A stretch of 64,000 bases of DNA from an uncultured Verrucomicrobiae bacterium (GTDB lineage Bacteria > Verrucomicrobiota > Verrucomicrobiia > Chthoniobacterales > JAFAMB01), in assembly GCA_963762565.1 (NCBI GenBank), contig CAVXLD010000001.1, forward strand, positions 480,001-544,000. The letters are read 5' to 3'. Positions 7,829 to 31,455 of this stretch are shown here, one piece after another. Each line of letters opens with the position of its first letter. The stretch's first letter is position 1. The position numbers were made by a program, and so were the translations under genes. Under the pieces are notes generated by a model. The model ran no database searches. It saw nothing but the letters and a program-made list of their open reading frames with translations, and was not told where the DNA came from.

Positions 7829-8380
7829 TCACCCGACCGGCGGATATTCCCTCGTTCCCCACCGATTCATTAACGCGTTATTAACTCCCCAACGAACAAT
7901 CGGGTGCCGGGCTGCAATCAGAAAATGAGCCCAAGGAGAGTTCTCACCGAGCCTCGATCCAAAGTTGCGTCGATGCTCGACGATGGCTTCCAATACGGTA
8001 TCGGCGAAGAGCGCCGTCTTTGCGGACAGCGCTGGGAGCGACTCGGCCGTAGACTCCGCGATCAATAGACAATAGCTGATCACCTTGGCCACAGTCCGAG
8101 CACTCAAATAGCCGGGCTCAGATACGCGTTCCGGATCGAGCACTAACGGGAAATTCTCGGCCGTGATCTCCCGATAGCTCCATTTGTCGCACAGGTCAGT
8201 CCGGGACATCGGGAACCGCGCATGGGACACCAAGTCCAAAAGGGTCCAGCTTATTTTCGGGTAAGGCGGCTCCGCAAAATCGTAACTGTAATTCAATGGG
8301 ATCGCCCGAATGGTCGAGGCTTCCTCGGGATACAATCCTAATGAGGATCCCGGGGCAGGCGGCGGCTGGTTGTCCCCCAT
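7829..8380 (-). CDS. Hypothetical protein
   Basis: 183-aa ATG-initiated ORF with no competing long ORF. Confidence 0.6.
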   Translation of the reverse strand: MGDNQPPPAPGSSLGLYPEEASTIRAIPLNYSYDFAEPPYPKISWTLLDLVSHARFPMSRTDLCDKWSYREITAENFPLVLDPERVSEPGYLSARTVAKVISYCLLIAESTAESLPALSAKTALFADTVLEAIVEHRRNFGSRLGENSPWAHFLIAARHPIVRWGVNNALMNRWGTREYPPVG

Positions 8381-8523
8381 CTTAAAACCTTAACCGCAGA
8401 TTAACGCAGATGGACGCAGATAAAACGTGGCGAATCGTCTGACCACCGATGTTCTCCGGAAAAATATCTGCGTTTATCCATCTGCGGTTGAAGGTCTTTA
8501 TTCGTCGGCTTTCGCAGCCCAAC

Positions 8524-9258
8524 CTACTTCGAGACGGCAGCGCCGTTGGTCCGTGCCTTTTTCTTCTTCTCCTTGATCTCAAAAGCCAGCGACAACACGC
8601 GCCGGTACTTCGCCTGACCAACTGCCACCAACCGGATGCTGAGGTCCGTCTTCTCGTTGATTTCCTGCAGGGCTCTATCGATCGCTCGCTGCTTAAGGTT
8701 GGGCCAATGGACCAGGCATTTCTCGCTCACAATGTTTCCTTGCGCATCGCGAACCTCGTCGACTCCCAGCACCTTGCGTAGCTTCGGGATGGAAATGCGC
8801 TTGAGATTGACCTGCCGCCATTTCCACGCCCATTCATAAAGCCGGATCGAATACTGGCTCGCCAGCTTGACCCCCGCTCGTTCGGAGTCCTCCTTTTGAT
8901 GGTTCTTAAGGCGCTCCAGATGCCGGTACAACCCCGGGTCAATGTGTAGAACCATCTTTTTATCCACTACCGTGACCGAGCTGAGCCACCGGGCATAGAG
9001 GACGGAGTTCTGCTTGTCCCCATTGTGTAACACCAACCGGTGGTAGGTCAGGAGTTTCAGCACTGCCGGTTGTAGGTCGAAATCCTCAAAGTCATAGCCG
9101 GTTACGCCCGGCTTAAGACGGTCCACAATCGACATGACGACAGTCCGCTCATCTTTGGTCAGTTTATAGAACGCTTCAATGAGGTCGTCGCCAAAACCAA
9201 GCTGATCCTCTAGATCCGCAAGTGGTAACGTTCCAAAAATTCTGTTATTTTTACGCAC
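8524..9258 (-). CDS. Rep_3/RepB-type replication initiator-like winged-helix protein
   Basis: YKLTKDERTVV (WH1-like), LASQYSIRLYE, ISIPKLRKVLGV, NLKQRAIDRALQEINEKTDL (WH2 signature). Confidence 0.85.
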   Translation of the reverse strand: MRKNNRIFGTLPLADLEDQLGFGDDLIEAFYKLTKDERTVVMSIVDRLKPGVTGYDFEDFDLQPAVLKLLTYHRLVLHNGDKQNSVLYARWLSSVTVVDKKMVLHIDPGLYRHLERLKNHQKEDSERAGVKLASQYSIRLYEWAWKWRQVNLKRISIPKLRKVLGVDEVRDAQGNIVSEKCLVHWPNLKQRAIDRALQEINEKTDLSIRLVAVGQAKYRRVLSLAFEIKEKKKKARTNGAAVSK

Positions 9259-9328
9259 TTTACTTTGTGGGAATTACAGTGTTAAGACTTAATTAATAAC
9301 TTAAATTTTTTAAGAAAGAAGCACTAAA

Positions 9329-9766
9329 ATGGTTTCAACAAAGGAAACCCGGCCCATTGCGCCGGAAACACAGAAGTGGTCCTTTTCGGCGGACGGAAAA
9401 CCATTGGGCTTAGACGAGTTCTTGGAATCGTATAAGAAACAAGGCGTTTTCTACGAAGGAAAGGAGCAGTGGCTCAAAGGGGTGGTCAAAGTCTCTTGGG
9501 AGAACTTTTTCTTGATTTGTACCGAAGAACTGGATGACATTTCACAACGAGCCGCAAAAATGTTGGTTCAGTATTGCCTGGAAATCGTTGAAGATGTGGT
9601 CAGCCGGATCCGGGGCCCAGTCGACGCCACCAAAATCGCCGAGGCGATGAAACGGGAGTTCGACGAACAGTACGATAACCCGATCTATCAGTTCCAATGG
9701 GCTATGCGTCACGACGCAATTCGGGAAGCCGTCACCAACGCAGTCGCTAACCGCTGGGGGAAGTAG
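9329..9766 (+). CDS. Hypothetical protein, divergent from rep
   Basis: 145-aa ATG ORF, helical composition, purine-rich upstream sequence. Confidence 0.7.
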   Translation: MVSTKETRPIAPETQKWSFSADGKPLGLDEFLESYKKQGVFYEGKEQWLKGVVKVSWENFFLICTEELDDISQRAAKMLVQYCLEIVEDVVSRIRGPVDATKIAEAMKREFDEQYDNPIYQFQWAMRHDAIREAVTNAVANRWGK

Positions 9767-10229: not shown

Positions 10230-12092
10230 ATGTTAGAAGTTCTCGCCCATGCCGGTTCCGGACCGCCCGACATCCCCCAGCCGGCGTTGGCACCTTCTTC
10301 ACCACACGATCCCCTCTCTTACCATTCGAACACCGGCACCGTCATTCGCCTCCCCAACTATCAGCCCGGGTTGCCGCCTATCGACCTGCTTGTTCACGGC
10401 GAATATCGTATCCGAGCCCGACCGATCGCACCAAATCGGCCTAGCCCACAAACGCAGGCTGCACCTCGATTCCAGGTCGATGTTTGCACACACCATCACG
10501 TGGTTCGCAGCGAGCGTTACGAAAGCGACGCAACCTCCTTGACCGATGCCGTCGATAAAGCCCGCGCCTGGATTCGGCGACGCCAGTCAATCGATCGTTT
10601 CGCCTTCATGCTTTCCCCCAACCTAATCCTGGTTTGGTGCCTGCTGATGGCCACCATCTGGTTCCTATTTCCACTGGTGTCCTGGGTCAGTTTTGCCCCG
10701 CTCTTCGTCTGTCTAACGGCCACCTTGGGCTGCGCTCCGGCCAGGCGTCACCGCAAAATTACCGCTCGTCTGGCTGGTTTAACCTGGGACCGAAACGACT
10801 TTTGCCGAGGTTGGTTAATCACCGGTGACACTGGCGCGGGCAAGACCTTCGCCATCAATGCTCTTTTACATTCGGTCTTTCAAAACGAGCCGGACTGGGG
10901 CGGACTTTGCTGCGACGAGAAGGGTATCTATCACGAAACCTTGGTCCAAATGACCAAGAAGTATGGCCGGCTCAACGATCTCCGGTTGCTCCAAACCAAG
11001 CCCGATGGCGCCGGAGCCGATTGGGAGCTGCCGGCAACATTCAATCTGCTTTCCGACGATTCGATTCCTGGATCGACCTATGCGACGGTCATCGTTGATA
11101 CGGCCTCCGCCTTAGCCGGAGGTGGCGAAGATAAAGGCTTTTTCAAGACTCAAGCGCACGCTCACATCGGCCGCGGGATTCAACTGTTTCGATTGCTCGG
11201 CTTACGGCCGACCATGCATCACCTATTAGAAACGCTGCAGTACCAACCGATTCTACGGGCGATGTTATCCCGCCTGGATCCGCTAGCCCAGGCCGGAAAC
11301 CGGGAAGCCCGGGAATGCAGCGATCACTTCCTAAACGGTTATCTGCGACAACCTCCTGAGCAATTGGGAGGTGTTATTTCCACTATCTACAATTACCTGA
11401 ACTACTTCACCAATCCTGACCTGGTCCAGGTATTCGGCGCCGAAGAAAACAGTTTCGAATTCTCCGATCTGGATGACGGCGCCATCATTTGCATTGCGAT
11501 GCCGCAGAAGTTTCAGACAGAACGTCGCTACGTCACCACCATCCTGAAGCTGTTGTTCTACACCCACGCCTTGCGCCGGTTCGATCCTCGGCCACCCAAT
11601 AAGCGCCCACTCTCAAGCGATAATCTGTTGATCTGTTGGCAGGATGAAGCCCAGCGATTTGTCAGCGATTCAGACGGAAATGTGGACGTTATCCGTCAAG
11701 CGAACACCACTACGGTACTGGCTGCGCAATCCAAGCTTTCGTTCATACCCCCGCTTGGAAACAAGGATAAAGCAGATGTGACCCTATTGAATCTGCGTAA
11801 TCGGATCATCTTTAAGGCAGCAGACCGCTCTTGCGCCGAAGGTTCTGCTGACTTCATCGGCAAAAAGCTAATCTGGAAAAAATCATACACGCGTGGAATG
11901 GGGAACCGGTCCACCACTCGATCGAGAGAAGAAGAGTACCGGGTAAAGCCATTTGAATTGATGGCCCTTCCGAAGTTCACCGCGGTCGTCAAACATTGCG
12001 AAAAACGTTTTCGAAAATCTCGCATTCATCCGATTGATCCGGATGGAAGAATTCCGCGCTGGTATCCGTGGTGGAGGCGCATTCTAAGATAG
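10230..12092 (+). CDS. Type IV secretion coupling protein, VirD4/TraG-like
   Basis: TM segments, Walker A GDTGAGKT, Walker B WQDEAQRF, LAAQS, and C-terminal EEYRVKPFELMALPKFTAVV typical of T4CPs. Confidence 0.85.
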   Translation: MLEVLAHAGSGPPDIPQPALAPSSPHDPLSYHSNTGTVIRLPNYQPGLPPIDLLVHGEYRIRARPIAPNRPSPQTQAAPRFQVDVCTHHHVVRSERYESDATSLTDAVDKARAWIRRRQSIDRFAFMLSPNLILVWCLLMATIWFLFPLVSWVSFAPLFVCLTATLGCAPARRHRKITARLAGLTWDRNDFCRGWLITGDTGAGKTFAINALLHSVFQNEPDWGGLCCDEKGIYHETLVQMTKKYGRLNDLRLLQTKPDGAGADWELPATFNLLSDDSIPGSTYATVIVDTASALAGGGEDKGFFKTQAHAHIGRGIQLFRLLGLRPTMHHLLETLQYQPILRAMLSRLDPLAQAGNREARECSDHFLNGYLRQPPEQLGGVISTIYNYLNYFTNPDLVQVFGAEENSFEFSDLDDGAIICIAMPQKFQTERRYVTTILKLLFYTHALRRFDPRPPNKRPLSSDNLLICWQDEAQRFVSDSDGNVDVIRQANTTTVLAAQSKLSFIPPLGNKDKADVTLLNLRNRIIFKAADRSCAEGSADFIGKKLIWKKSYTRGMGNRSTTRSREEEYRVKPFELMALPKFTAVVKHCEKRFRKSRIHPIDPDGRIPRWYPWWRRILR

Positions 12093-12123
12093 TGATGAGC
12101 AGACTCGGATGAGCGGAATCATC

Positions 12124-13173
12124 CTACCGGATGCTCGCATAGGTGCGAAACTCCGCCGGATCCAACTGACCTTGCACTTGCTTTAAGGCAGTCTGGAAAT
12201 CGACCATTCCCAATTCTCTTCCCGCCAACATATAGTTTTCTAGTTCTCGTTCGTTTCCCGATATAATCACCGCCTCGGTGTTAAGTGCGTGCACGCAGAT
12301 CTCGCGCACGGCTATTCTTCCTGAGGTTTTCCGTCGTAACAGCCGTTGATTCATCACTAACCGCATCGTTCGTCCGAAAACGTAACGCACCTCAGCCGCC
12401 ATCCGTTCGGGCGCCAGTAGGATCAAACGTCTGACCGTCTCCACCACACTGCTTGCATGCAGCGAACCGATCACCAGATGCCCAGTTTCTGCCGCTTGTA
12501 ATGCGGCTAAAACCGAATCTGCGTCCCGAATCTCACCCACCACAATAACGTCGGGATTCTGCCTCAGGGCTTGACGCAAACCTTCTGCATACGAGGGCAC
12601 ATCCCGTCCGACTTCTCGCTGAATAATTTCCGCTTGGTTTGCTCGGAAAAGGAATTCAACCGGGTCTTCGATAGTCACAACCTTTGCCGGCCGCGAAACA
12701 TTGATGGCTTCGATGATGGCTGCGATGGTGGTGGTTTTTCCTGAGCCGGTTGGTCCGGAGACCAAGACTAATCCATCCGTGAGCGCCACAACGAGGGCGG
12801 CGATGCGTTTAGAAATTCCGATCTCCAGAAGATCAGGCGGCTGTGCCGGCAGTGGACGTAGTGAGGCGAAGAGTTCCCCTTGCGCACGCCCCAGATTGAC
12901 TCGGAACCGAAGGCCGTTGATCTCGGCAGTGTAATCCGCGGCGCCCATCGGCCCGCTAACCTCAGGACCAGCCGCGGGATACAATTTTATCAGCTCGGCA
13001 ATGAGTTCTTGTACTTCACTCCGGGACAAGGCGCCGTCTTCGCTTAGGTGAACGACTCTGCCTTCGAGTCTTGCCGTAACGTTGGCTTGAAAGACAGAGA
13101 TGTCGCTAACCTGATTCGAGCGAACAAACTCCACGACTTGGGCCCATCGCTCTGCAGTTGTCATCGTAAACAC
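12124..13173 (-). CDS. pilT: PilT/PilU family type IV pilus ATPase
   Basis: GPTGSGKTTT, TIEDPVEF, LRQNPDVIVVGEIRD, AAETGHLV. Confidence 0.85.
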   Translation of the reverse strand: MFTMTTAERWAQVVEFVRSNQVSDISVFQANVTARLEGRVVHLSEDGALSRSEVQELIAELIKLYPAAGPEVSGPMGAADYTAEINGLRFRVNLGRAQGELFASLRPLPAQPPDLLEIGISKRIAALVVALTDGLVLVSGPTGSGKTTTIAAIIEAINVSRPAKVVTIEDPVEFLFRANQAEIIQREVGRDVPSYAEGLRQALRQNPDVIVVGEIRDADSVLAALQAAETGHLVIGSLHASSVVETVRRLILLAPERMAAEVRYVFGRTMRLVMNQRLLRRKTSGRIAVREICVHALNTEAVIISGNERELENYMLAGRELGMVDFQTALKQVQGQLDPAEFRTYASIR

Positions 13174-13176
13174 ACC

Positions 13177-13908
13177 TTAGTTATTCGCTGGAGACGGCGC
13201 CGCGCTCAGCTTCTGCTGATTTTCAGGGTGCTTTGGGCAGTAAACCTGCTGGGTTAAGCTAAGCAGGTTTTGGTAATTGGCGCCGGCATTGTCAGGGCAC
13301 TGGGGAATCCCAAATCTAAAGTATGGCTGAAAGTCTGGAATGCTGGGAACACTGGTCGCTCCGGGATGATCCCGGAGATATTCGTCCTTAGCCGCTTCAA
13401 TGGTTAACATATTGTTCAAGCAGACGCGCTGGTTCTGCTGATTGAGTGCGGATAAAACCGAGGTCGTGATCAAGGCCGAGACCAGCGCGATAATGGTGAT
13501 GACAACCAGCAGCTCGATTAAAGAGAGACCAGCGTGCCGCCTCCTTCTCGCTGTGAGGAAATACGTCCACGGCGGCGCATGCCCAGCGCCTGGAGGGGAG
13601 CCGCTTTGTCGCCTGGCAGTTCTATAGGATGGCTGCTGGCGGCTCCCGGGAATAACCCAGCGTGGTGCTTGCACCCAGCCTCCCTGTTTCGGCGCGAATT
13701 GATTCGGACGCCGCACGTAGAACCGCCCTACCCTGGGTCGTTCCCGGGAGCCGCTTGCTGCCAACTTGCAGAGCTGCCGAGTTGCAAAGCGGCTCCCCTC
13801 CAGGCGTTGGGCAGGTGCTGTATCGTATCGCCTTGCAATGCGTGTAACCTTTAGAATCTGAAGGAACCACTTCCTGAAACCTAACCGCGGCTCACCGGTA
13901 GGCCTCAT
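13177..13908 (-). CDS. Type IV prepilin-like protein (start uncertain)
   Basis: Class III signal RRRRHAG/LSLIELLVVITII with E5, C-terminal Cys pair; mature part 13177-13527. Confidence 0.8.
   Translation of the reverse strand: MRPTGEPRLGFRKWFLQILKVTRIARRYDTAPAQRLEGSRFATRQLCKLAASGSRERPRVGRFYVRRPNQFAPKQGGWVQAPRWVIPGSRQQPSYRTARRQSGSPPGAGHAPPWTYFLTARRRRHAGLSLIELLVVITIIALVSALITTSVLSALNQQNQRVCLNNMLTIEAAKDEYLRDHPGATSVPSIPDFQPYFRFGIPQCPDNAGANYQNLLSLTQQVYCPKHPENQQKLSAAPSPANN
13580..13813. repeat. 234-bp imperfect palindromic element, family H
   Basis: 29-bp terminal IR with one mismatch (tgcccagcgcctggaggggagccgctttg) plus extended inner pairing; relative at 58738-59165. Confidence 0.85.
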
Positions 13909-14518
13909 AGTTCTCCAGGTCATCCTTCAACAGAAAATCGCGCAACACTTTCTGGGTCACCAGGTTAAGCGCTCTAAATACGTTCCTGCCAGTCACGCAA
14001 TCACCGGCCAGACGATCAACTTTCCGATCCGGTGCTCGTATTAGCAGATCGATCGCATCGGTCGGTGCTATCTGCTCTTCTGATAGATCGCGCTTATTAT
14101 AGAATAACATCCAGGTTAGTTGCTCAGGCTTGAGGTCAAGTGTTGCCAGATTTTCTTCCAGATTCCTAAGACTCTCGATATTGGCCTCCATTCGATCCCA
14201 TTGTGAGTCCACAATAAAGATTAGACCGTCGGCACCGCGAAGAACCAGTTGCCGCGTTGCGTTGTACATCACCTGGCCTGGAACGGTCCAAAGCTTGAAT
14301 CGCACTTTGAAACCTTTTACTGAGCCACCGGTAATCGGAAGGAAATCAAAGAAAAGCGTCCGGTCATTTTGGGTCGGTAATAAGACTAAGTTACCTCTAT
14401 CCTGCGCATCCACTCGCTCGTGGACATAGCCAATAGAGGATGTCTTACCACCCAGGGCGCAGCCATAGTAAACGATCTTAAATTCGACCTCACCCTTAAC
14501 GAAATTGATGAAAGACAT
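13892..14518 (-). CDS. mglA: MglA-like small GTPase
   Basis: KIVYYGCALGGKTS, DRTLFFDFLP, TVPGQV.YNATR, NKRD. Confidence 0.9.
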   Translation of the reverse strand: MSFINFVKGEVEFKIVYYGCALGGKTSSIGYVHERVDAQDRGNLVLLPTQNDRTLFFDFLPITGGSVKGFKVRFKLWTVPGQVMYNATRQLVLRGADGLIFIVDSQWDRMEANIESLRNLEENLATLDLKPEQLTWMLFYNKRDLSEEQIAPTDAIDLLIRAPDRKVDRLAGDCVTGRNVFRALNLVTQKVLRDFLLKDDLENYEAYR

Positions 14519-14595
14519 CTCCCCCAATGCTAGTATTGACCCAACGTATTCGTCGAATGTTTTTATATATAAAAATTTACAGCACTTAAATCGGA

Positions 14596-16083
14596 TTAAC
14601 GATCGGTTATGTCGCCGGCGGTCCGAAATCCGATTCGCTCATCGAGAGTATACGGCGAAAGCTCAACGACTCGCCGGGCTAGTTGCCCGTCTTCGCTCAT
14701 GAAATTCCCGCCTCGGACGACTGGCGATCCACTGCCATCATCACTGGCCGTCCACTCGGAAACATTGCCGGCGAGATCATGCACTCCATAAGGGCTGCAG
14801 TCGCCCGGGTACTGTCCCACTTCTGACCACCCGCCCGTCCGGCGCGCTCCACTATAAAGGTTGGCCGCGCCGGTCTTAGGTTCATCGCCCCAAGGATATT
14901 GTCGTCCATCACTCCCTCTGCCTGCCTTCTCCCACTCCATCTCAGAAGCGAGCCGCCGGTTCTGCCACTTAGCAAAGGCGTATGCGTCAAACCAATCGAG
15001 ATAGACGGCGGGAAAGTTCGGATTCAGACGCACCCCTTTGAACTCGGCCCCGGCAAAGGCGGCCTTGGCATACGCTTCCCAACTGGGATTCGTGTGGCGC
15101 TTGCCCACCCGTTGGTTGGGGTGATCATACTTGGTATTGTCTCCGGCGGCGTCCAGAAACTCCTGATATTGCCACACCGTGACTTCGGTGGAATCGATAT
15201 TAAACGCGGGCAAATCTACTTGCCGGTTGTCTTGAAATATAAATGGCCCCGCGGGGATTAAGATCCTGGAAGGAGTTAGTTTCTGCCAACCGGTTTGGAA
15301 CCCGAACGCCTTCTTTTTGTCGATCAAGTTCTCCCAAACCGCAGAACGGAAACTGTTATTGAGCAAAAGCCAAAGAAGTCCACAGGACACAGCAACAATT
15401 AAAGCGATGGAAACAGCCCGCTTTAGAGTCTGATGTCTGCGCTCTCGATCCTGCTCCTGCGCAATGCGCTGCAACAATTCCGTTGCCGCATCGTGTTCCA
15501 ATTGAGTTTCCTCTCCATTCTTCTCAGATCGCTTGTTCCCAGGCCACCATTTTGCGATCGGTCGCGATGCGGTGAGAAAAGACCGAGACGACATCCTTCT
15601 ACTTCTTCCCTGTCCCACCCTCTGGTGTTCCCACTCGTCGCGTTGGCGTACCGCGTCCATTAGAACTTGCTCCCAACGACCGAAGATGGTCCGCGGAGTT
15701 ACCTGTTCGGGCGGAATAGGCGCAAATTCGAACATCCCCCGCATCCAGCAAAGCACTTCAAGTAGAGCGGGTTCGCCGATCTTTGATTTGGTGACTGCGT
15801 GGATGATCCGCCCGTGTTGGAGCACAATCTCGCCGGTTTCCCCACGACGGCGCACTCTTAAGCGCCCGTCGCGCCGAGCGACACATGCCATCTGAATAAT
15901 ATCAAGGAGCGGGAAGTTGCGCAGTTTACCGCTAAAACCTGCAGCTCCGGCCTTTATCCTGATTGGTCCCGGCGTCGTATCGGTTGGAGCACTTTCCTGT
16001 CGTCCGCCACCACGCATGAGCTTTCGATGTAGACTTGTCCTTCGTTCGATCTGAACCCTAGGCATCGCCGGAAGCGTAGGCAA
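14596..16083 (-). CDS. DUF4388 domain - TM - formylglycine-generating-enzyme (SUMF1) domain protein
   Basis: GFSGKLRNFPLLDIIQM...GRIIHA (DUF4388); TEVT..QY, RLASEMEWEKAGRG, YPWG, DLAGNVSEW, IGFR (FGE-sulfatase). Confidence 0.85.
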   Translation of the reverse strand: MPTLPAMPRVQIERRTSLHRKLMRGGGRQESAPTDTTPGPIRIKAGAAGFSGKLRNFPLLDIIQMACVARRDGRLRVRRRGETGEIVLQHGRIIHAVTKSKIGEPALLEVLCWMRGMFEFAPIPPEQVTPRTIFGRWEQVLMDAVRQRDEWEHQRVGQGRSRRMSSRSFLTASRPIAKWWPGNKRSEKNGEETQLEHDAATELLQRIAQEQDRERRHQTLKRAVSIALIVAVSCGLLWLLLNNSFRSAVWENLIDKKKAFGFQTGWQKLTPSRILIPAGPFIFQDNRQVDLPAFNIDSTEVTVWQYQEFLDAAGDNTKYDHPNQRVGKRHTNPSWEAYAKAAFAGAEFKGVRLNPNFPAVYLDWFDAYAFAKWQNRRLASEMEWEKAGRGSDGRQYPWGDEPKTGAANLYSGARRTGGWSEVGQYPGDCSPYGVHDLAGNVSEWTASDDGSGSPVVRGGNFMSEDGQLARRVVELSPYTLDERIGFRTAGDITDR

Positions 16084-16139
16084 GTCTTTAGCCGCGACGA
16101 AATCGCAATCGTTCTCTTAATGACACCAGCCCATCGCGG

Positions 16140-16315
16140 GGGAGGGATCGCAGCCTGTCCGACATAGCCTTCCATCGAGGGTCTTTTCTTCTCAGCCCTA
16201 GCGACGTCGGATCCCCGCGATCCGTTATCGAAGCCCAGGGCGTATTGAATCTTCGGACGAAAATACACCCTTAGGTTGCGACGCGTTCGCAGCGCGCGGG
16301 GACGCGCGCCCTCCC
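16140..16315 (+). repeat. Family A element interrupted by a family F mini-element (16154-16211)
   Basis: Removing cctgtccgacatagcc...tagcgacgtcgga restores a unit of about 118 bp. Confidence 0.8.
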
Positions 16316-16360
16316 CGGATTCGAGGACGAGCACGAAGCGCCTGACGAGCCTAAGGCGAG

Positions 16361-17530
16361 TCACCCCGGTAACGCCCCCACATACCGCGCTCGAGGACGG
16401 ATTAGATCGCCCTGGCGATGTTGCTCGATGGCATGGCCGATCCAACCAGCGACGCGGCCAAGAGCAAAGATCGTAACCGGCGAGCCCGCCGGAAGATCGA
16501 AGGCGCGAGCCACCGCCGCTAAAGCCAAATCAATGTTTGCAGGTTTTCGGAGCACTTGAGCGGCCTGGGTAACCCGCTTTGCTTGAGCCTCGCCTGCCCT
16601 GATTTTTCTTAGCATCTGCATGAGTGCTTTAGCACGGATGTCACCTCCCGGGTAGAGCGGATGCCCGAATCCAGGAATAAACCCTTTCTGTCTCTGCCAC
16701 TCTACCAGTGTGGTACGCAACGCCTTGCTGCACTCCAGCTCGGCGAGTAGTTGATAGCAGACCAGACTCATGCCGGCATGACGATGGCCTCTCAACGCAC
16801 AGAGTCCTGCCAATACGACTTCATAGAGACTGCTTCCAGCTGAGGCCACAACACGTGCTGTGAAGGAGGAAGCGTTTAGCTCGTGATCCATGCACAAGAT
16901 CAGCGCAGCGTTCAGCACGCCGGCCAGCTCCGGACTTCCGGGTGCCCACTTTTGCTGCAATTGTTCCGCCGCGGTCTCCAAGCGCACGTTAGAACGCCCG
17001 ATCAAACATCTTAGAAACAGCTCCAGGATTCTCCACCCAGTCGATAGCGCATTAGGCACGGTAAGATCATATCCGCCAACATCATGGTCGCTCAGTTCCA
17101 GCAGGGACCGTTGAAACTCTCTTAGCGGCGATGAACCGGGTTCTGGCTTGAGAGGGGGGCCGTCCGCAAACACCTCAAAAGGCTGATCTCGGTTCCAGAA
17201 CCATCGAACCGCCCTGGAAAACGGCTCCGATCGCGCCAGGTCAACTGCGTTGCGGCCTCGGTAATAAAGCTGTCCCTCATCAATGAGCGTCAACTCCGTT
17301 TCCAACAGCGGTACGCCCCAAGACAAAGCAGTCGTGAGTTTGGTCGCAGGCTCACGGCGGACTTCTTTCCGTTGCCGCAGCCGTTCCAAATCCAGTCGAT
17401 TGTATCGACGCGACCGGGAATTATCTCCGGCTTCGGATCGAACCCAGCCGCGACTCACATAAGCATACAAGGTCTGCCGCGACACACCAAGGTAGCGGGC
17501 GGCTTCGGCGGAGGTAAGGAGAAGGTTCAT
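16361..17530 (-). CDS. HTH-citrate synthase fold fusion protein
   Basis: N-terminal excisionase/MerR-like HTH (AEAARYLGVSRQTLYAYVSRG); DHELNAS, GHRHAG, GFGHPLY, ANID. Confidence 0.9.
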   Translation of the reverse strand: MNLLLTSAEAARYLGVSRQTLYAYVSRGWVRSEAGDNSRSRRYNRLDLERLRQRKEVRREPATKLTTALSWGVPLLETELTLIDEGQLYYRGRNAVDLARSEPFSRAVRWFWNRDQPFEVFADGPPLKPEPGSSPLREFQRSLLELSDHDVGGYDLTVPNALSTGWRILELFLRCLIGRSNVRLETAAEQLQQKWAPGSPELAGVLNAALILCMDHELNASSFTARVVASAGSSLYEVVLAGLCALRGHRHAGMSLVCYQLLAELECSKALRTTLVEWQRQKGFIPGFGHPLYPGGDIRAKALMQMLRKIRAGEAQAKRVTQAAQVLRKPANIDLALAAVARAFDLPAGSPVTIFALGRVAGWIGHAIEQHRQGDLIRPRARYVGALPG

Positions 17531-17542
17531 CGGGGTCTGTCC

Positions 17543-17732
17543 GTGGAGCGCTGCCTCGCTTGCGAGGCCGTGGCGAGCAGGGCTGATGACGAGGCATATC
17601 GGCGGCTCCCCTCGTTCCCTCGCATGTCCCGGACTCGGCCTATGTACGACACAGTGCGCAGCACACAAAGCGACCTATATCATTTCGAATACCCTTGCTC
17701 ACCACGGCCTCGCAAGCGAGGCAACGCTCCAC
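17543..17732. repeat. Inverted REP doublet, family C
   Basis: gtggagcgctgcctcgcttgcgaggccgtgg ... ccacggcctcgcaagcgaggcaacgctccac; same unit as the array at 52729. Confidence 0.85.
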
Positions 17733-17745
17733 AGTCAGCCATCAT

Positions 17746-17794
17746 ATTGATTTATCAATCAACATTGACGACATAACGAATCCGTTCTCATGCT
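17746..17794 (+). promoter_or_regulatory. Palindromic operator plus sigma70-like promoter
   Basis: ATTGAT-TT-ATCAAT (17746-17759), TTGACG (17765-17770), CATGCT (17789-17794), ATG at 17801. Confidence 0.6.
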
Positions 17795-17800
17795 AACCAC

Positions 17801-19126
17801 ATGACCGACTCTATGTCTCTCCCGGTTTTTGATGCCGGGCCCGATTATCTTGAGACCTATTTTCCCCAAGACGCTTTTCCAAAGTACGGCTGGTCGAGTT
17901 TACCATCCAACTTGCCGGCCCAAGCCTGGACCACCGAGACGACCCATCGAGATGGTCAACAAGGCGGGTTACCTTTCACCGCCAAACAGAGCGTCGAAGT
18001 CTACCAAATTCTGTGTGATTTCACCGGAAAATCCGGCGCCATCCGGCAAGCGGAATTCTTTGTTTATCGAGCGCAAGACCTGTCCGCCCTGCGGGCCATT
18101 CAAGAGAAGTATGCCGGCGGAGCTCCGATTGAGCCGACCACCTGGATCCGCGCTTCCACGACTGACGTCGCTCTCATTAAGCAGTTAGGCATCGCCGAGT
18201 CCGGCCTGCTAGCGTCGATATCTGACTATCACGTTTTTCATAAATTCCGACCGGCCGGCCGGCGTTCTGCCGCCTCGAACTATCTCGATGCTGTCAAAAT
18301 GACCTTGGATGCCGGTATCCGTCCTCGGTTACACCTCGAAGACGCTACCCGAGCGGCGCCTGCGTTTTTGGCCGGTTTCGTTGAAGCAGTAATGGAAACT
18401 GCTTCCAACTATCCACCAGCGCTTTGCCCCAAGTTCCGAGTCTGCGATACTCTCGGGCTCGGACTTCCCTACGACGACATACCGCTCCCACGCAGTGTAC
18501 CAAAGCTCATTCGGGAATTTTTCCGGATCGGTGTACAATCGCAAAACCTCGAATTTCACCCCCATAACGATACCGGCTTGGTACTGGCCAATTCCCTTGC
18601 CGCGATTCGCGCGGGATGCAGCGCCATCAACGGCGCCTGTCTGGGGAAAGGGGAACGAACCGGCAACGCGTCTCTGGAACTGATTTTGTTACATTTGATG
18701 GGGATGGGGTATTTCGGCGCCGAACAACCAGAATTTCGAGTACTCAACCGCTTAGTCGACCTATACGCAGACCTGGCACAACCGATCAGTGAAAAATATC
18801 CGTTATACGGCCGAGACGCCCATCGGACTCGAGCGGGAATCCACGCCGACGGCCTCAACAAGTTCTGGCTAATGTACGCTCCGTTCAATGTTCCCGCCCT
18901 CCTTGGCCGGCCCTTAGAGGTATCATTGACCAAAGATTCAGGGCTTGCCGGCCTGATCTTCGTAGTTAATCAACAACTCCATCGGCAGCTGGATAAGAAC
19001 GATCCCACGCTCTTGGAAGCGAACCGTTGGATTATGCGGGAGTTCGATGGCGGCCGCCAGACTGCCATCGAGTGGGAAGAGATATCACATTTTTTCAGCG
19101 GAATCGGAAATCATTGTGCCGCCTAG
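17801..19126 (+). CDS. DRE-TIM metallolyase, Re-citrate synthase-like
   Basis: ETTHRDGQQ, GAIRQAEFFVY, TTWIRA, SISDYH, RPRLHLEDATRA, CDTLGLG, HPHND, GERTGN, TRAGIHADG, as recalled for clostridial Re-citrate synthase. Confidence 0.8.
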   Translation: MTDSMSLPVFDAGPDYLETYFPQDAFPKYGWSSLPSNLPAQAWTTETTHRDGQQGGLPFTAKQSVEVYQILCDFTGKSGAIRQAEFFVYRAQDLSALRAIQEKYAGGAPIEPTTWIRASTTDVALIKQLGIAESGLLASISDYHVFHKFRPAGRRSAASNYLDAVKMTLDAGIRPRLHLEDATRAAPAFLAGFVEAVMETASNYPPALCPKFRVCDTLGLGLPYDDIPLPRSVPKLIREFFRIGVQSQNLEFHPHNDTGLVLANSLAAIRAGCSAINGACLGKGERTGNASLELILLHLMGMGYFGAEQPEFRVLNRLVDLYADLAQPISEKYPLYGRDAHRTRAGIHADGLNKFWLMYAPFNVPALLGRPLEVSLTKDSGLAGLIFVVNQQLHRQLDKNDPTLLEANRWIMREFDGGRQTAIEWEEISHFFSGIGNHCAA

Positions 19127-20236
19127 ATTCGCCGGAGGATCGCCCAAGTGAATTTTGCCGGTCTTGGATAACAGAACGGAGACCCAACGGGTTGCTCTAA
19201 AGTTAGCGAGTATAATTACGAGAATCACGGTAAGTGGGACACAGAGGAACGCGCCTACTATCCCCCAAACTGTGCCCCACAAAATCAAGGCGATAATGAC
19301 CGTCAACGGACTGAGGTTGAGGGTTTCACCCATGATATTTGGCTCCACAATATTTCCCATAAACATGGCGATGGCTGTGATACCGATGCCTACCGCCAAG
19401 CAGGGCCCAATATGATCGAACTGAACCGCAGCCAATAATGTTGGAAAAAGGGTTGCAACGATCACACCGATCGTCGGGATGAAGTGAAGAATAAAGATTA
19501 GCAGCGCCCAAAACTCGGCAAAATCCAGACCCACGATTCGCATCAGAATATACGCCAAAATCGCGCTGGTTAGACTGACCGCCGTCTTAACCCCCAGATA
19601 AGTATGAATATCCCGGTCGATGCGCTGCATCATCTGCAACACATGTTGCCGGCGTGACCGATTCGGAAACAGCGCAGTCAGCTTGGCGGGTAGAAACCTT
19701 AGTTCGATCAAGATAAATAACGAATAGAGGAACACCAAGACGGTGCTCTCGAGCACATCAGCGACGGATCGGGCCAAGTCGGTAAAAAATCCTTTCAGAT
19801 CCAGTGACCGGAACACCCCCAGGAGCTCTGGTGGTTCTTCCAAGCCGAACTGGCTGAAAACCTCGGTCTGCAGTTGTTGCAATCGAGCCTGATATTTAGG
19901 AGCAGCTGCAGCCACATGAAAAGCATTGTTCGCAACGATCGACGTCAAGGCGCAACCCACGCCGAAAATCAAAACGAACGAAACAATCACCGTTAACAGC
20001 TTAGGGATTTTATGCCCGGCAATCTGAACCCGTCCCACCAGCCGGCTGAGAATATCAACGAGGTAGACGACGAGAAACGAGATAACCAGCGGAACGAAGA
20101 AATGCCGGCCCAGGCTTAATATATAATAAAAGGCGATAGCGATGGCCAAGCCGCAGGCCGTCGTAATCAGGCGGCGAAAACCGCTGGATGATCGAATTGG
20201 AGCAGAGGGTTCACTCATTTGAGTCCGGAGAATCAT
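19085..20236 (-). CDS. AI-2E family transporter
   Basis: Multi-TM; FIPTIG, GNIVEPNIMG..LNLSP, WG.VWGIVGAFLCVPLT. Confidence 0.9.
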   Translation of the reverse strand: MILRTQMSEPSAPIRSSSGFRRLITTACGLAIAIAFYYILSLGRHFFVPLVISFLVVYLVDILSRLVGRVQIAGHKIPKLLTVIVSFVLIFGVGCALTSIVANNAFHVAAAAPKYQARLQQLQTEVFSQFGLEEPPELLGVFRSLDLKGFFTDLARSVADVLESTVLVFLYSLFILIELRFLPAKLTALFPNRSRRQHVLQMMQRIDRDIHTYLGVKTAVSLTSAILAYILMRIVGLDFAEFWALLIFILHFIPTIGVIVATLFPTLLAAVQFDHIGPCLAVGIGITAIAMFMGNIVEPNIMGETLNLSPLTVIIALILWGTVWGIVGAFLCVPLTVILVIILANFRATRWVSVLLSKTGKIHLGDPPANLGGTMISDSAEKM

Positions 20237-20633: not shown

Positions 20634-21542
20634 CTACTCCAACACCAAACATCCTCCGGTGGGATCAAAGCGGAAAACCCCGTGCTCAGGCGTTCGCCCT
20701 GTCAATGCCCAGGGCAAGCTGGCAGAGTTGAACTGTCGATCGACTTCCTGGCGCAACATACGCGCCCCAAACGCTCTGCTGTAACCTACTCGGAGTAGAA
20801 ACGCGGTCGCTGGCCCGCCATCGATCCCGAGCGCCCTCCCGAAGAAAATCGATAGTACCCCCAACTTTTGTCTGATCAGCTTGTACAGGATCGCTTTCTG
20901 TGTCTCCAGATCGAGCGGACGGAAAACAATTCGTTCCGAAATTCTCGCGAACAACTCCGGCCGCAACGATTGAGCAGCCACATCCAGCGCGACTCGCTCC
21001 ATGGTTGAGTAGGGAGCATTCTCCATTTTGGCAAGGTCACCGCTACCAAGATTGCTAGTTAGAACAACGTAGAACCGGTTCACCTTCAGCCTTTCCCCGG
21101 AAGGAGTCGTTAACGCGCCCTCTTCAAGAAGAGAAAGCAGCACATCGATGGTTCGAGGATGCCCTTTTTCTATTTCGTCAAAGAGGAGCGTGGTCCCCTT
21201 CGGATGCCGCCGAATTGCCATCTCACTTCGGTTAAAAAATTCAGTCAGACGCTGGTCAGACGAATATTCGTTCATAAAAATCATCTCGAGCGTCTCTTTG
21301 GACCCGAAGATCGCCTCGGTAAAACATTTGGCCGATTCCGTTTTTCCGACTCCGGTCGGCCCCAGCAAGAGAAAGCTGCCTTTTGGTCTAACGCCAGTAT
21401 CATTCAGACCCAACTCAGCCGCTTGCACCGCTCGACAAATGCGGGCAACCGCCAACCGCTGACCAACGATTCGCTCCTCGAGGATCCTCGGTAAATCCGC
21501 TAAACCAACCGCAGATAAATTGGACGTTAGTTGTCGCTCCAT
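20634..21542 (-). CDS. Single-domain ClpA/ClpB D2-like AAA+ ATPase
   Basis: RIVGQ, LLLGPTGVGKTE, LLFDEIEK, LTSNLG, RPELFARI, FGARMLR; start set at ATG 21542. Confidence 0.9.
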   Translation of the reverse strand: MERQLTSNLSAVGLADLPRILEERIVGQRLAVARICRAVQAAELGLNDTGVRPKGSFLLLGPTGVGKTESAKCFTEAIFGSKETLEMIFMNEYSSDQRLTEFFNRSEMAIRRHPKGTTLLFDEIEKGHPRTIDVLLSLLEEGALTTPSGERLKVNRFYVVLTSNLGSGDLAKMENAPYSTMERVALDVAAQSLRPELFARISERIVFRPLDLETQKAILYKLIRQKLGVLSIFFGRALGIDGGPATAFLLRVGYSRAFGARMLRQEVDRQFNSASLPWALTGRTPEHGVFRFDPTGGCLVLE

Positions 21543-21829
21543 TTCTCGGACTGATACGCTCCTGGACCTAAAAAAGTTTTCCGAGGCATTCAATATCCGC
21601 AGATTTCGCAGATTACTCAGATTTCGGTTTGGGGTCTGATATGCCAGGGAGTTATTGAACTGTGTCTTCGGGAACATCTTCCTTAGCGAGCTTCGCTCTC
21701 CGGTGGAAACCGTCTGCAAGCGCCACGTTTTTGCTACGTCCCTGACAGCGCCCAACCCCAAAACGAAATCTGCGTAATCTGCGAATATTCCTTTTCTTAA
21801 AATCAGCGATCCGCGGTTCAACTCTCCTC

Positions 21830-22486
21830 TCAGTTCCCCGGACGGACTACCACTCCGCCGGCGTCGGTTCGGGCTACGTTGTTATCTGCGGTTGGGCTCG
21901 GGCTAGCCGCGGGTTGAGTTTCCAATTTTTTCATTCGCTCGTTCAAAAGCCCAACTGCCGCAGTCAGTTTGCGCTGCCCATCCAACGTCTGCTCAGCTAA
22001 AGATTGGACATTGCTAGCCACCTTCTGCTGTCCGTCCCGCATCGACTGAAGGTCCTTGTTCGCATCTTGTAATCCCCGTTTGGCTTCTGCCAGATCCCGA
22101 GCTGTTTCACCGGGTTGAGGTTCAGGCGCATATTCCGGTCGATGAAGACCCAGAATCGGACCTAACAAAATTTCGCCGGACTGATTCTTGGATCGTGTAA
22201 CCCAGGCCGGTTTCTGTTCGATCCGGTAGATCGCGTGCCTTTCGTGCATGATCCGCGGATCAGCGGGATCGACATACCGATTCACTCCGTAGACCTTCAC
22301 CTGCTCCGATTGCCGCACATTGGTAACGGCCCCGATTAGTCCTTTTGGGGTGGCAGCTCTGGGAACAGAGTCCGATTGAACCAATCGACGACCTGCCGGT
22401 AACACGACGACCTGGGGTTCAGGTTCTGCACAGCCTGCCAGGAGCGAGGCGGTGAGCAGAAAAGGAAGTATTGACACTTTATACAT
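21830..22486 (-). CDS. T4SS-operon lipoprotein with coiled coil
   Basis: Lipobox LLAGC; tightly linked to the virB10-like gene. Confidence 0.75.
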   Translation of the reverse strand: MYKVSILPFLLTASLLAGCAEPEPQVVVLPAGRRLVQSDSVPRAATPKGLIGAVTNVRQSEQVKVYGVNRYVDPADPRIMHERHAIYRIEQKPAWVTRSKNQSGEILLGPILGLHRPEYAPEPQPGETARDLAEAKRGLQDANKDLQSMRDGQQKVASNVQSLAEQTLDGQRKLTAAVGLLNERMKKLETQPAASPSPTADNNVARTDAGGVVVRPGN

Positions 22487-22492
22487 ACAGTC

Positions 22493-23641
22493 TCATTTTA
22501 TGTTTTGATTTGTCGAACCAAATACGGGCAGCAGCGGGTTCAGCAGACTAGCCGCGTCCGCAGGTGACGCTTTGCGAACTTGTTCCTGAGCTTTCTGAGC
22601 TAGATCGGCCTGTCGGCGCGCCTCTCGTTCGTCGTCTCCTCCCACTCTCGCCCGATCGAGATCAATCGCTTCCATGCAGTAAACATAGAACTGCTTCCCT
22701 GCCGGGACCCGAACGAAGAAGCCGTCTCGTTCAATGGTTTGAGCGATCTGATCGGCGTATCGATCCAGCACACTCTGGGTAGCGCCTACCGCAGGATTGA
22801 CCACTCCGCCCTGAAGCGCGCTGAGACCGAGAGAGCTGCTGTTGGTATAGACGCGATTCCCAAGGACACCTGAACTTCCCGTGGAAAAAGCTCCGGCAAT
22901 CCCGCTAATCAACGACGCTGCGTACAACTTGATCACGTCGTTGTTAGCAGTTCTGATCACATCTCCCCTTAAACCCGCGCTGCCATCCGTGATACCATAG
23001 GTATCAAATTCATCGTCCTTCTCCATATCAAGAGCGATACCGCGCACCACCAGTTCTCGGCCTCTGCCGTCCGGTTCGTTCAAAACAAACGTGAACTCGC
23101 CTTGGCTGGCAATGCGTTCCCTCACGGTATCGACAGTGGCTACGCTATGCACTTCGGAGTTGGATCGGATGATCGTCTTGCCGTTCCAACACAGATCCTC
23201 AGTCACTAACCCAATGATGGGAGTCGTCAGATTACTTGAATCAACAGTGTTAACGAGTTGGCATTTAACCAGGCGAAATGCTGGCGCATAGTCGCCACCC
23301 AGACCGGCACGAGGTTTGTCTGGCTGCTCTTCTGCAGCAAATATGGTCAATGATCGGACCCCTGTAGCCTTGGACGGCTCCTGCTCGATCGAACGCGGGA
23401 GCGAAACTTGAACCGGGGCGGGGACTTCTCTTCGGGTCCGGATTTGGCTTGGTGCTACCGGATTGAAATTTCGCAGCGTGCTGGTCATCGGTTCAGTGAC
23501 CTTCACCAAGTCCTTCGTGACTTGAGCCTGGCGATTGGCAATTCCGGCAGGGCCGTTACCGTGCCACAGGGTATACATAAAGGTCCCCGCAATCGAAGCG
23601 AACGCGACTAACGTCACGGAAATTGTTTTTCTATTCAGCAT
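22493..23641 (-). CDS. TrbI/VirB10-like protein
   Basis: N-terminal TM, Pro-rich linker, CQLVNTVDSS..TPIIGLV, DGSAGLRG, VRVPAGKQFYVY. Confidence 0.8.
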   Translation of the reverse strand: MLNRKTISVTLVAFASIAGTFMYTLWHGNGPAGIANRQAQVTKDLVKVTEPMTSTLRNFNPVAPSQIRTRREVPAPVQVSLPRSIEQEPSKATGVRSLTIFAAEEQPDKPRAGLGGDYAPAFRLVKCQLVNTVDSSNLTTPIIGLVTEDLCWNGKTIIRSNSEVHSVATVDTVRERIASQGEFTFVLNEPDGRGRELVVRGIALDMEKDDEFDTYGITDGSAGLRGDVIRTANNDVIKLYAASLISGIAGAFSTGSSGVLGNRVYTNSSSLGLSALQGGVVNPAVGATQSVLDRYADQIAQTIERDGFFVRVPAGKQFYVYCMEAIDLDRARVGGDDEREARRQADLAQKAQEQVRKASPADAASLLNPLLPVFGSTNQNIK

Positions 23642-24710: not shown

Positions 24711-24711
24711 A

Positions 24712-25509: not shown

Positions 25510-25537
25510 ACGAAACTCGTAGAGATCACATCAGACC

Positions 25538-27004: not shown

Positions 27005-27017
27005 AGCGCGAAGCCTC

Positions 27018-27866: not shown

Positions 27867-28221
27867 TGATCGGAATCACGACATCTCGCTGCACTCGAAT
27901 TACCCCATCCGGATCTTGATGTTCCGGAATGGTCGCATTGTAATATTTCATTTCTCCCTCGTTTTCCGCTTTACTGGTTTGCTGACTTTTCTGTTGAGCC
28001 CAGTACGTCCGCTTAACTTGATCGGAAATGCCTTTTGCATAGCCCTTAGCAAAATCGATCGGCACCTTCCGCTCATCGTCGCCGGTCCCCATTAATGGGT
28101 CTCCCTGGTTAGTTAACGCTTCTGAGCCTCTCCCCTGCACAGTGAGTTGACCTTTGGGCACGGTCGGACCAACAGTACAACTTGCTAGAATCAGACTGAC
28201 TAACAAACCAAGGCGCTTCAT
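27859..28221 (-). CDS. Small T4SS-operon lipoprotein (VirB7/TraV-like position)
   Basis: Lipobox ILASC; overlaps both neighbours. Confidence 0.65.
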   Translation of the reverse strand: MKRLGLLVSLILASCTVGPTVPKGQLTVQGRGSEALTNQGDPLMGTGDDERKVPIDFAKGYAKGISDQVKRTYWAQQKSQQTSKAENEGEMKYYNATIPEHQDPDGVIRVQRDVVIPIIE

Positions 28222-31401: not shown

Positions 31402-31455
31402 AACCAGAAGTAGAGTGGTTAGGGTTCAGAATTGGGCGATCAGTGCTTTTATCAT

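Follow-up and report, generated by a model that had tools for sequence, protein, structure and literature searches.

What are four genes of type IV pilus character doing beside a type IV secretion system (T4SS)? The question is raised by positions 12124-16083 of a 64,000-nucleotide stretch of DNA from an uncultured Verrucomicrobiae bacterium (the window; C1:480001-544000 of a 6.1-Mb genome in 15 contigs, 93.7% complete). This segment encodes, in order, a membrane protein in which a PATAN (DUF4388) domain is followed by a transmembrane (TM) helix and a domain resembling formylglycine-generating enzyme (FGE), an MglA-family GTPase, a prepilin and a PilT-family ATPase. The four genes are one operon-like cassette made of type IV pilus parts, and the genetic tie of this module to T4SS-type genes is real and old. 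We propose, with a probability of about 0.4, that the cassette is an accessory switch-and-motor unit of pilus type that works with T4SS-type envelope parts. The arrangement may point to a hybrid of two surface machines of bacteria that has not been described, although the T4SS also persists in genomes without the cassette.

Open reading frames (ORFs) were called mechanically and 61 of those in the window were scanned for domains. Four minus-strand ORFs fill the segment, as an earlier reading based only on the nucleotide sequence (the sequence-only reading) had described. The spacing is tight, as the start of the prepilin gene overlaps the stop of the GTPase gene and the ATPase gene begins only 3 bases after the prepilin stop. 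The same reading had the module converging on VirD4, and the VirD4-like gene does end 31 bases from the stop of the ATPase gene (Table 1). All four genes are under purifying selection, with ratios of nonsynonymous to synonymous substitution (dN/dS) of 0.03-0.20 in two within-genus pairs (0.13-0.16 for the PATAN-FGE gene, 0.035-0.044 for the GTPase, 0.12-0.20 for the prepilin and 0.03-0.09 for the ATPase). A promoter and terminator scan of positions 11900-16600 detected sites no more numerous than in shuffled sequences. A search of sequencing runs returned 20 DNA datasets (soil metagenomes) and zero RNA datasets. The PADLOC defence models gave nothing meaningful for the four proteins (the top match, mad8 at 8e-8, concerns only the P-loop).

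Table 1. Coordinates in the window of the cassette, the repeat within it and the neighbouring genes
Feature	Position	Strand	Basis and remarks
orf183	7829-8380	-	Paralog of orf145 (cross-hits)
Rep3-like winged-helix protein	8524-9258	-	Rep3_N, Rep3_C (Pfam)
orf145	9329-9766	+	Paralog of orf183 (cross-hits)
VirD4-like coupling protein	10230-12092	+	TrwB_AAD_bind 34.2 bits, TraG-D_C 23.3 bits (Pfam)
Divergent PilT-family hexameric ATPase	12124-13173	-	T2SSE; 349 aa
Prepilin gene	13177-13923	-	248-aa ORF, N_methyl motif PF07963
REP-like composite palindromic repeat, ~235 bp	~13578-13812	.	In frame within prepilin leader; frame stays open
Orphan MglA-family GTPase	13892-14518 (ORF 13892-14527)	-	208 aa from probable start MSFINF
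PATAN(DUF4388)-TM-FGE-like membrane protein	14596-16083	-	Pfam; 495-aa ORF
AI-2E family transporter gene	19085-20236	-	PF01594, 144 bits
T4SS core	20634-31815	-	Pfam, NCBIfam; 8-19 kb from module
ClpB-like AAA+ (AAA_2)	20634-21821	-	Pfam/NCBIfam; 395 aa, first T4SS-core gene
orf218		-	Between ClpB-like AAA+ and TrbI/VirB10
TrbI/VirB10	22493-23884	-	Pfam/NCBIfam
VirB9-like orf359	23631-24710	-	AlphaFold2 fold match
orf265, orf499, TrbJ-like orf282, orf120		-	In this order between VirB9-like and VirB4
VirB4	28218-31067	-	Pfam/NCBIfam; orf113 next
TrbC/VirB2	31456-31815	-	Pfam/NCBIfam; last core gene

The ATPase matches the NCBIfam model pilT_fam (TIGR01420) over its full length (aa 12-333) with 262.9 bits, under the cut-off of 319.1. 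TraJ (158.7 bits, cut-off 368.3) and DotB (140.5 bits, cut-off 463.3) follow, and the scores for TrbB (68.8 bits, cut-off 304.55) and VirB11 (60.3 bits, cut-off 249.95) are also below threshold. In the Protein Data Bank (PDB) the ranking is PilT, then DotB, then PilU, with solved VirB11 chains at 34-43 bits against 188 for PilT. The sequence-only reading had credited the protein with all the ATPase boxes of PilT and with NTEAVIIS in place of the AIRNLIRE motif. Both statements are borne out by an alignment with Aquifex PilT (2ewv), in which the Walker A, Asp, Walker B and His boxes correspond and NTEAVIIS falls at the position of the motif. AIRNLIRE marks working PilT retraction proteins, PilT being the ATPase that retracts pilin fibres. 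All 17 ATPases of the module clade have a [KN][VL]E[AS]VI-type sequence here, and PilT homologs of sister families retain AIxNLIRE. A census of T2SSE proteins in the genome identified the module ATPase as its only PilT-type ATPase and found no VirB11. Among 1.84 billion representative proteins there are three close clusters (56-63% identical to the ATPase), and the next full-length match is 40% identical.

We placed these proteins in a tree of 81 rows (IQ-TREE quick search, LG+G4). It comprises the 17 module ATPases, three second PilT-like proteins from the family of the window (f1), six PilB-like outgroup sequences, 53 PilT/PilU-like proteins from other families (a subset of the matches) and two references, plasmid TraJ and a plasmid DotB-like protein. 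The 17 module ATPases all fall in one clade, with a Shimodaira-Hasegawa-like approximate likelihood ratio (SH-aLRT) value of 100. Its sister group (SH-aLRT 98) consists of the three second PilT-like proteins of f1, which have kept NLIRE; two of these were inspected, and a secretin gene follows one while a prepilin gene lies near the other. The resulting 20-row clade is outside a 46-row clade (95) of AIxNLIRE-bearing PilT, PilU-like proteins and further subfamilies. The two plasmid references, TraJ and DotB-like, have long basal branches apart from the module clade. In this phylogeny, a check of the kind that the sequence-only reading had suggested, the ATPase therefore does not group with canonical PilT. 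Judged from its sequence, it is a lineage-specific offshoot of pilus-type PilTs and is neither a canonical PilT nor a member of the DotB/TraJ or VirB11 groups.

The best solved relatives of the GTPase are MglA of Thermus thermophilus (E 7e-50) and MglA of Myxococcus xanthus (E 9e-49). Its DRTL arginine and TVPGQ glutamine, described earlier as kept, are indeed invariant (R53 and Q82) in 11 aligned sequences (A1), and its P-loop is the variant GCALGGKT. The start is probably MSFINF (14518), the same as in eight orthologs. The claim that no MglB/roadblock neighbour accompanies it can be extended, as PF03259 matches nothing either among the ORFs of the window or in the genome as a whole (93.7% complete). 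PMC4316618 reports that MglA-family proteins sort PilB and PilT, that orphan members of the family exist without MglB, and that mglA genes sometimes adjoin PATAN genes. The genome also encodes a second, canonical MglA, 49% identical to the module GTPase, at C1:217 kb beside ExbB/ExbD genes. In this locus (L010, G000:C1:215860-219456), mglA is flanked by a gene for a 462-aa low-complexity protein and by the ExbB/ExbD-type genes. The C-terminus of the 462-aa protein looks roadblock-like by eye and was considered as a hidden MglB. This candidate was dropped as it is unsupported by Pfam or by a PDB sequence search, in which the last 139 aa of the protein, encoded upstream of the canonical mglA, gave a best E of 0.097 to an unrelated structure.

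The prepilin carries an N_methyl motif (PF07963, 28.5 bits, aa 127-152, Pfam), and NCBIfam also detects a GspG/IV_pilin N-terminus. A class III signal is present, with predicted cleavage between G132 and L133 (HAG before the site, LSLIE after it), E at +5 and a hydrophobic N-terminus. The mature pilin would be 116 aa long (13527-13180) and has conserved Cys residues. The leader is approximately 130 aa in length compared with 20-34 aa in orthologs, because a ~235-bp composite palindromic repeat, similar to repetitive extragenic palindromic (REP) elements, sits in frame within it. The terminal arms of this repeat are CCTGGAGGGGAGCCGCTTTG and CAAAGCGGCTCCCCTCCAGG. It has matches at more than 40 other places in the genome, on both strands (six copies were aligned), and is missing from the prepilin ortholog of G004. 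The ancestral start, MTWRTMRPT, is shared with orthologs (M..TMRPT) and overlaps the end of the GTPase gene. A short prepilin gene beginning after the repeat was also considered and was rejected, because there is no in-frame ATG, GTG or TTG from codon 84 to the cleavage site and because the orthologs share the upstream start. Elsewhere in the window (51665-52711), an ORF of 348 aa carries an IS200-like Y1 transposase domain and is a candidate for the REP-associated transposase that belongs to the repeat family.

The fourth protein includes a DUF4388/PATAN domain (PF14332, 72.4 bits against a cut-off of 25, aa 51-152) and an FGE-sulfatase domain (PF03781, 117.6 bits, aa 286-489). It has no Pfam Response_reg match and thus no receiver domain by this criterion. 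Its orthologs start later, near aa 23-45. The AlphaFold2 (AF2) model shows a PATAN fold (53-160), a disordered linker, a long helix (193-259) and an FGE fold (273-491), and the hydrophobic stretch of the protein falls within the long helix. A Foldseek search with this model retrieved FGE, EgtB and CalU17 (E 3e-12 to 1e-10; FGE chains at about 4e-11). Formylglycine-generating enzymes bind copper through a conserved pair of Cys residues close to the C-terminus. The FGE part of the module protein (aa 270-495, alignment A2), where the stretch reads RGGNFMSEDGQLARR, has no invariant Cys, and FGE-type copper chemistry is therefore unlikely. A DHPxQxxxKxH motif is invariant in the same alignment. We infer that the PATAN domain lies in the cytoplasm and is joined by a single membrane helix to a periplasmic domain of FGE fold that lacks the catalytic Cys pair. 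A complex prediction for the GTPase (A1) with PATAN (A2 residues 45-170) and GTP scored 0.00, which counts neither way. Sister families have homologs of approximately 800 aa in which receiver (REC), PATAN, Ser/Thr-kinase and FGE domains are combined, in an unrelated gene setting beside genes for tetratricopeptide repeat (TPR), LysM and amidase proteins (L017:9668-12085, L018:8617-11025). This longer form may be the ancestor of the short PATAN-FGE protein.

The genomes used for comparison are mostly fragmented metagenome-assembled genomes (MAGs), and absences, which mean that a gene was not found with the given query, are consequently soft. In a survey of 41 genomes of the order Chthoniobacterales, VirB4 orthologs were found in 22 of the 24 other f1 genomes and in none of the 16 genomes of other families. 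The module-type GTPase (70-94% identical, 38% in genus g4) is confined to f1 in this survey, as is the module-type ATPase (at least 44% identical). Canonical MglA (48-53% identical) occurs in all f1 genomes with a match and in seven of the 16 others. The other families have two to six PilT/PilU-like genes, often in tandem, and most f1 genomes are without them. When all f1 genomes are considered, the module ATPase (E <= 1e-60) is present in 28/43 and VirB4 in 40/43; every one of the 28 genomes with the ATPase has VirB4. No ATPase match was obtained at E <= 1e-62 in 400 other genomes of the phylum (185 genera). The cassette was encountered once outside the order, at locus L131 of a 5-Mb MAG (G453) whose housekeeping aminotransferase is 42% identical to that of the window (compared with 64% for a same-family and 56% for a same-order genome). 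The VirB9-like and PATAN-FGE genes of G453 are split over frames. The cassette is apparently limited to one family of Chthoniobacterales with one horizontal transfer.

To follow gene order, window proteins were mapped by tblastn on sets of 20, 8, 4 and 53 loci. In genera outside g4, the AI-2E gene and the module always adjoin VirD4-orf145-Rep3(-orf183-folC), in at least three arrangements including an inversion. The module converges on VirD4 in g1, g7 and g9, follows it in the same direction in g5, and comes immediately after the T4SS core in g8 and g11. The g4 modules are divergent (ATPase 44% and GTPase 36-38% identical) and are located between gltA and leuA. Their order is orf145-like, Rep3-like, orf183-like, VirB9-like, PATAN-FGE, GTPase, pilin, ATPase and orf166, and it is identical in G016, G057, G051 and G050. 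The orf145-like, Rep3-like and orf183-like genes here are paralogs of the trio near the window's module. A third lineage (G053, L118, L119 and L131) has the same order as g4. Of the 53 loci anchored on the VirB9-like gene, six have the T4SS core followed by the module side and nine (plus one partial) have the T4SS and no module. Nine others are cassettes in which a VirB9-like paralog is present but the T4SS core is not, 11 hold more distant T4SS relatives and no module, and 17 are too short to classify. In the nine cassette loci, the VirB9-like paralog is directly upstream of the PATAN-FGE gene. The cassette was never seen next to pilB, pilC or a secretin gene. Neighbourhood co-occurrence, another check put forward by the sequence-only reading, is thus found with T4SS-type genes, as linkage in cis in all three lineages to a VirB9-like gene and the Rep3-like/orf145/orf183 trio.

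The T4SS locus itself contains homologs of VirB4, VirD4, VirB10, VirB9 and VirB2. From 7.8 to 31.8 kb the window includes orf183, the Rep3-like gene, orf145, VirD4, the module, insert genes, the AI-2E gene and the T4SS core; the housekeeping genes folC and nadC flank the locus. A PDB sequence search with the VirB9-like protein (orf359) found nothing. Its AF2 model (predicted local distance difference test 67, rising to about 85 in two beta-sandwich domains) matches the outer-membrane core-complex chains DotH, TraK, VirB9, TrwF and CagX (E 6e-11 to 1e-4), and the protein is called VirB9-like because of this fold match to solved T4SS chains. The surrounding system belongs to a barely annotated verrucomicrobial class of T4SS, is chromosomally fixed and is conserved as strongly as core genes. 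VirB4, for example, is 74-78% identical across genera. A recent insertion of a plasmid or of an integrative and conjugative element was ruled out by the fixed chromosomal position next to folC and nadC across genera and by host-like divergence. No relaxase or integrase is encoded in the T4SS locus, judged from the ORFs of the window, and PF03432 is absent genome-wide. TrwC-type relaxase matches (PF08751) are found only at G000:C7:11249-12095 and C5:544719-545667, each split over two frames; these may be remnants of other mobile elements.

Several neighbours of the cassette are of interest in their own right. Plasmid replication initiators match the Rep3-like protein at 27-29% identity; its gene is 77-96% identical across genera. 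The genes orf145 and orf183 always flank the Rep3-like gene (window 7829-9766, L013:6111-8081) and specify small proteins of no known family with a C-terminal NxxxNRWG. The ESM Atlas gave nothing usable for orf145, and PHROGs gave nothing for the unnamed proteins of the T4SS locus except Rep-like matches for the Rep3-like protein. A ClpB/ClpV-like AAA+ protein is conserved in the related T4SS loci L076, L079, L081, L083 and L136, including the paralogous T4SS of G009; to our knowledge, a ClpB-like AAA+ of this kind is not part of textbook T4SS sets. In genera other than g4, the AI-2E gene is inherited as the immediate upstream neighbour of the PATAN-FGE gene. In this genome a genus-specific insert (16361-19126) comes between the two and holds a divergent HMGL/LeuA-like gene as well as a fusion of a MerR/excisionase-like helix-turn-helix to a citrate-synthase-like domain. 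Curiously, true gltA and leuA stand on either side of the g4 cassette. In the plasmid collection, VirB4 matches just two verrucomicrobial plasmids, at 27% identity. The plasmid of Opitutaceae TAV5 (L141, 19980-39387), which is almost wholly annotated as 'hypothetical', has relatives of VirB4 (27% identical) and VirD4 (29% identical). Its T4SS is followed by a pilus cluster with PilT-like (33% identical), secretin, PilB-like and prepilin genes. This gives a precedent for the pairing of a T4SS with a pilus in the phylum.

The sequence-only reading had also remarked that PilB, PilC and a secretin are absent. This holds for the window, where no T2SSF or PilB-type ORF was found among the ORFs scanned, but not for the genome: PilB and PilC are encoded on contig C13, a secretin cluster with a 713-aa ATPase is located at C1:400-420 kb, and there is a prepilin peptidase on contig C11.

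We favour a role accessory to the T4SS because the constant companions of the cassette are T4SS-type (the VirB9-like gene and the Rep3-like/orf145/orf183 trio) and its parts are tied to type IV pilus motors. In this proposal the GTPase would be an on/off switch. PATAN would dock the PilT-type hexamer or the GTPase at the membrane, after the example of Synechocystis, in which PATAN is an output domain that binds the N-termini of PilB1 and PilC (bioRxiv 10.1101/2021.06.11.447907). The FGE-fold domain would touch a periplasmic partner, possibly the VirB9-like ring. The ATPase would retract a short fibre of the cassette's own pilin, which would depend on the host prepilin peptidase for its processing and on the host PilB/PilC for its assembly. 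The whole would act as an accessory to the T4SS locus, like pili that support cell contact.

A number of observations weigh against this proposal. Neither a platform protein nor an extension ATPase is encoded in the cassette, and its pilin must therefore be handled by host machinery. In genus g4, VirB4 is present in 18/19 genomes and the module ATPase in only 8/19, so that the T4SS is kept without the cassette; the g4 T4SS locus then consists of the core, AAA+, VirD4, orf145, Rep3 and folC with no module (nine full-flank loci, including that of G055). G055 (96% complete, with a full T4SS locus) has no cassette-type ATPase at E <= 1e-60, a search in which weaker PilT-type matches were not looked for, and G022, also of g4, has no PilT-type ATPase at E <= 1e-10. 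G453 has the cassette and no VirB4 at E <= 1e-10; this, with its position outside the order, implies a horizontal move and that the cassette can exist without this T4SS. Some g4 cassettes show decay: G057 and G050 each have a broken VirB9-like paralog, and in G050 the ATPase and the GTPase are frameshifted as well. Finally, the repeat-inflated leader of approximately 130 aa could impair the pilin in the present genome.

Alternatively, the cassette could be a housekeeping pilus-retraction unit, comprising the only PilT of the family with a minor pilin of its own, an MglA-type switch and a PATAN adaptor, that acts on the distant PilB/PilC/secretin machine. Its linkage to the T4SS would then be a historical accident with no functional coupling, arising, for example, from a shared plasmid-derived island or from recombination between paralogous Rep3/orf145 segments. 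We regard this as a serious possibility, although short of probable. The ATPase is the sole PilT-type gene of a genome that has PilB/PilC, a secretin and a prepilin peptidase elsewhere, the two to six PilT/PilU-like genes of sister families are mostly missing in f1, and the sister clade of the module ATPase resides in pilus/secretin clusters. PATAN and MglA are known pilus regulators and the T4SS persists without the cassette. Against an accidental linkage stands its retention in three lineages (with ATPases that are only about 44-47% identical), where it involves the VirB9-like, Rep3-like, orf145, orf183 and VirD4 genes and survives inversion. Two further points against a housekeeping unit are that the cassette was never seen beside pilB, pilC or a secretin gene and that AIRNLIRE is lost in 17/17 members. 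A different extension of the T4SS connection is that the cassette and the VirB9-like gene together constitute a stand-alone hybrid nanomachine, with a T4SS-type outer-membrane ring, a PATAN-TM-FGE scaffold across the inner membrane and periplasm, a PilT-type motor pulling a mini-pilin 'piston' and an MglA-type gate. We consider this doubtful, and equally so the corollary that such a machine works alone (as in the g4 cassette and G453) or docked to a full T4SS (as in this genome). If true, this would make its GTPase the first of the Ras-like kind known to govern a T4SS-type apparatus.

The sequence-only reading had instead suggested a minimal polarity/retraction unit that could stand in for VirB11 or place the T4SS at a pole, with the DUF4388-FGE protein as input. 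The ATPase would then energise the VirB11-less T4SS much as DotB serves Dot/Icm, and the GTPase would set the polar position. The genome has no VirB11/TrbB-type ATPase, DotB and TraJ are the next-best NCBIfam matches after pilT_fam, and the cassette adjoins both VirD4 and the T4SS core. We nevertheless rate this as improbable because the T4SS class is generally without VirB11, has a conserved third ATPase of its own (the ClpB-like AAA+) and is intact without the cassette. Complete T4SS loci lacking the cassette (VirB4 75-77% identical) were found nine times, and approximately ten g4 genomes are without the cassette; G022 of this genus has no PilT-type ATPase at E <= 1e-10. The paralogous T4SS of G009 and four more distant full-flank T4SS loci have no PilT/VirB11 match within 10 kb. 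Conversely, the module exists without the T4SS core (nine loci) and, in one genome, without VirB4. The ATPase is separate from the DotB-like and TraJ references in the tree, and a prepilin has no known role in a T4SS; the pilus/secretin setting of the PilT sister clade and the prepilin of the module point to a mechanism of type IV pilus type. It is less credible still that the cassette is a decaying remnant of a plasmid-borne conjugative pilus with no current function in this genome. The REP-like insertion in the prepilin leader, the frameshifts and breaks in G017, G050, G057 and G453 and the patchy presence in g4 would fit such a history. They must be set against four ORFs that are all intact here, the low dN/dS in both within-genus pairs and a GTPase that is 73-94% identical across genera.

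What is known of how Ras-like GTPases and PATAN domains act on motors of pilus type comes only from Myxococcus and cyanobacteria, with partners scattered over the genome. Here, switch, adaptor, motor and fibre subunit are in one four-gene operon, kept beside T4SS genes through three divergent lineages. If the link is functional, type IV pilus parts would be joined to a T4SS machine by a new kind of coupling, and the cassette would provide a compact system for asking what replaces MglB. If it is not, the cassette still shows a family replacing the canonical PilT/PilU set by one divergent GTPase-coupled ATPase. Among the literature titles listed in searches concerning T4SS, PilT or MglA in Verrucomicrobia or Chthoniobacterales, none describes the present locus.

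The cassette can be compared with several known systems. It shares with MglA/MglB and the orphan paralog SofG of M. xanthus, and with T. thermophilus MglA, the GTPase family, the Arg finger and the catalytic Gln. It differs in that the module GTPase has no genomic MglB by PF03259, has a GCALGGKT P-loop and coexists with a canonical MglA paralog, and in being translationally coupled to a prepilin and a PilT-type ATPase and linked to T4SS-type genes. DotB of the Dot/Icm type IVB system and TraJ of IncI plasmids are PilT-like ATPases that serve a T4SS. The module ATPase is likewise a hexameric ATPase of the PilT superfamily encoded with T4SS genes, and these two are its closest NCBIfam relatives after pilT_fam; however, it is far below their cut-offs and separate in the tree, and its T4SS is kept in genomes without the ATPase. 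Type IV pili are also encoded beside a T4SS on conjugative elements, as with the thin pilus of IncI1 R64 and with PAPI-1. In these and in the TAV5 plasmid, pilus-type genes adjoin a plasmid-type T4SS as they do in the module locus, but all three encode a complete pilus machine, whereas the cassette has only the pilin and a retraction-type ATPase, together with the GTPase and PATAN adaptor that they lack. With PixE and PixG of Synechocystis (PatA-type), the module protein has the DUF4388/PF14332 domain in common; it is without a receiver, and its PATAN domain is instead fused through a membrane helix to the periplasmic FGE-fold domain. Finally, PorK/GldK, the ring lipoprotein of type IX secretion, also places an FGE-sulfatase fold in the periplasm without FGE chemistry, and the NCBIfam GldK model gives a weak, partial match (2.2e-9, aa 373-447) to the PATAN-FGE protein. 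Unlike PorK/GldK, the module protein has a membrane helix as its anchor and a PATAN domain on the cytoplasmic side.

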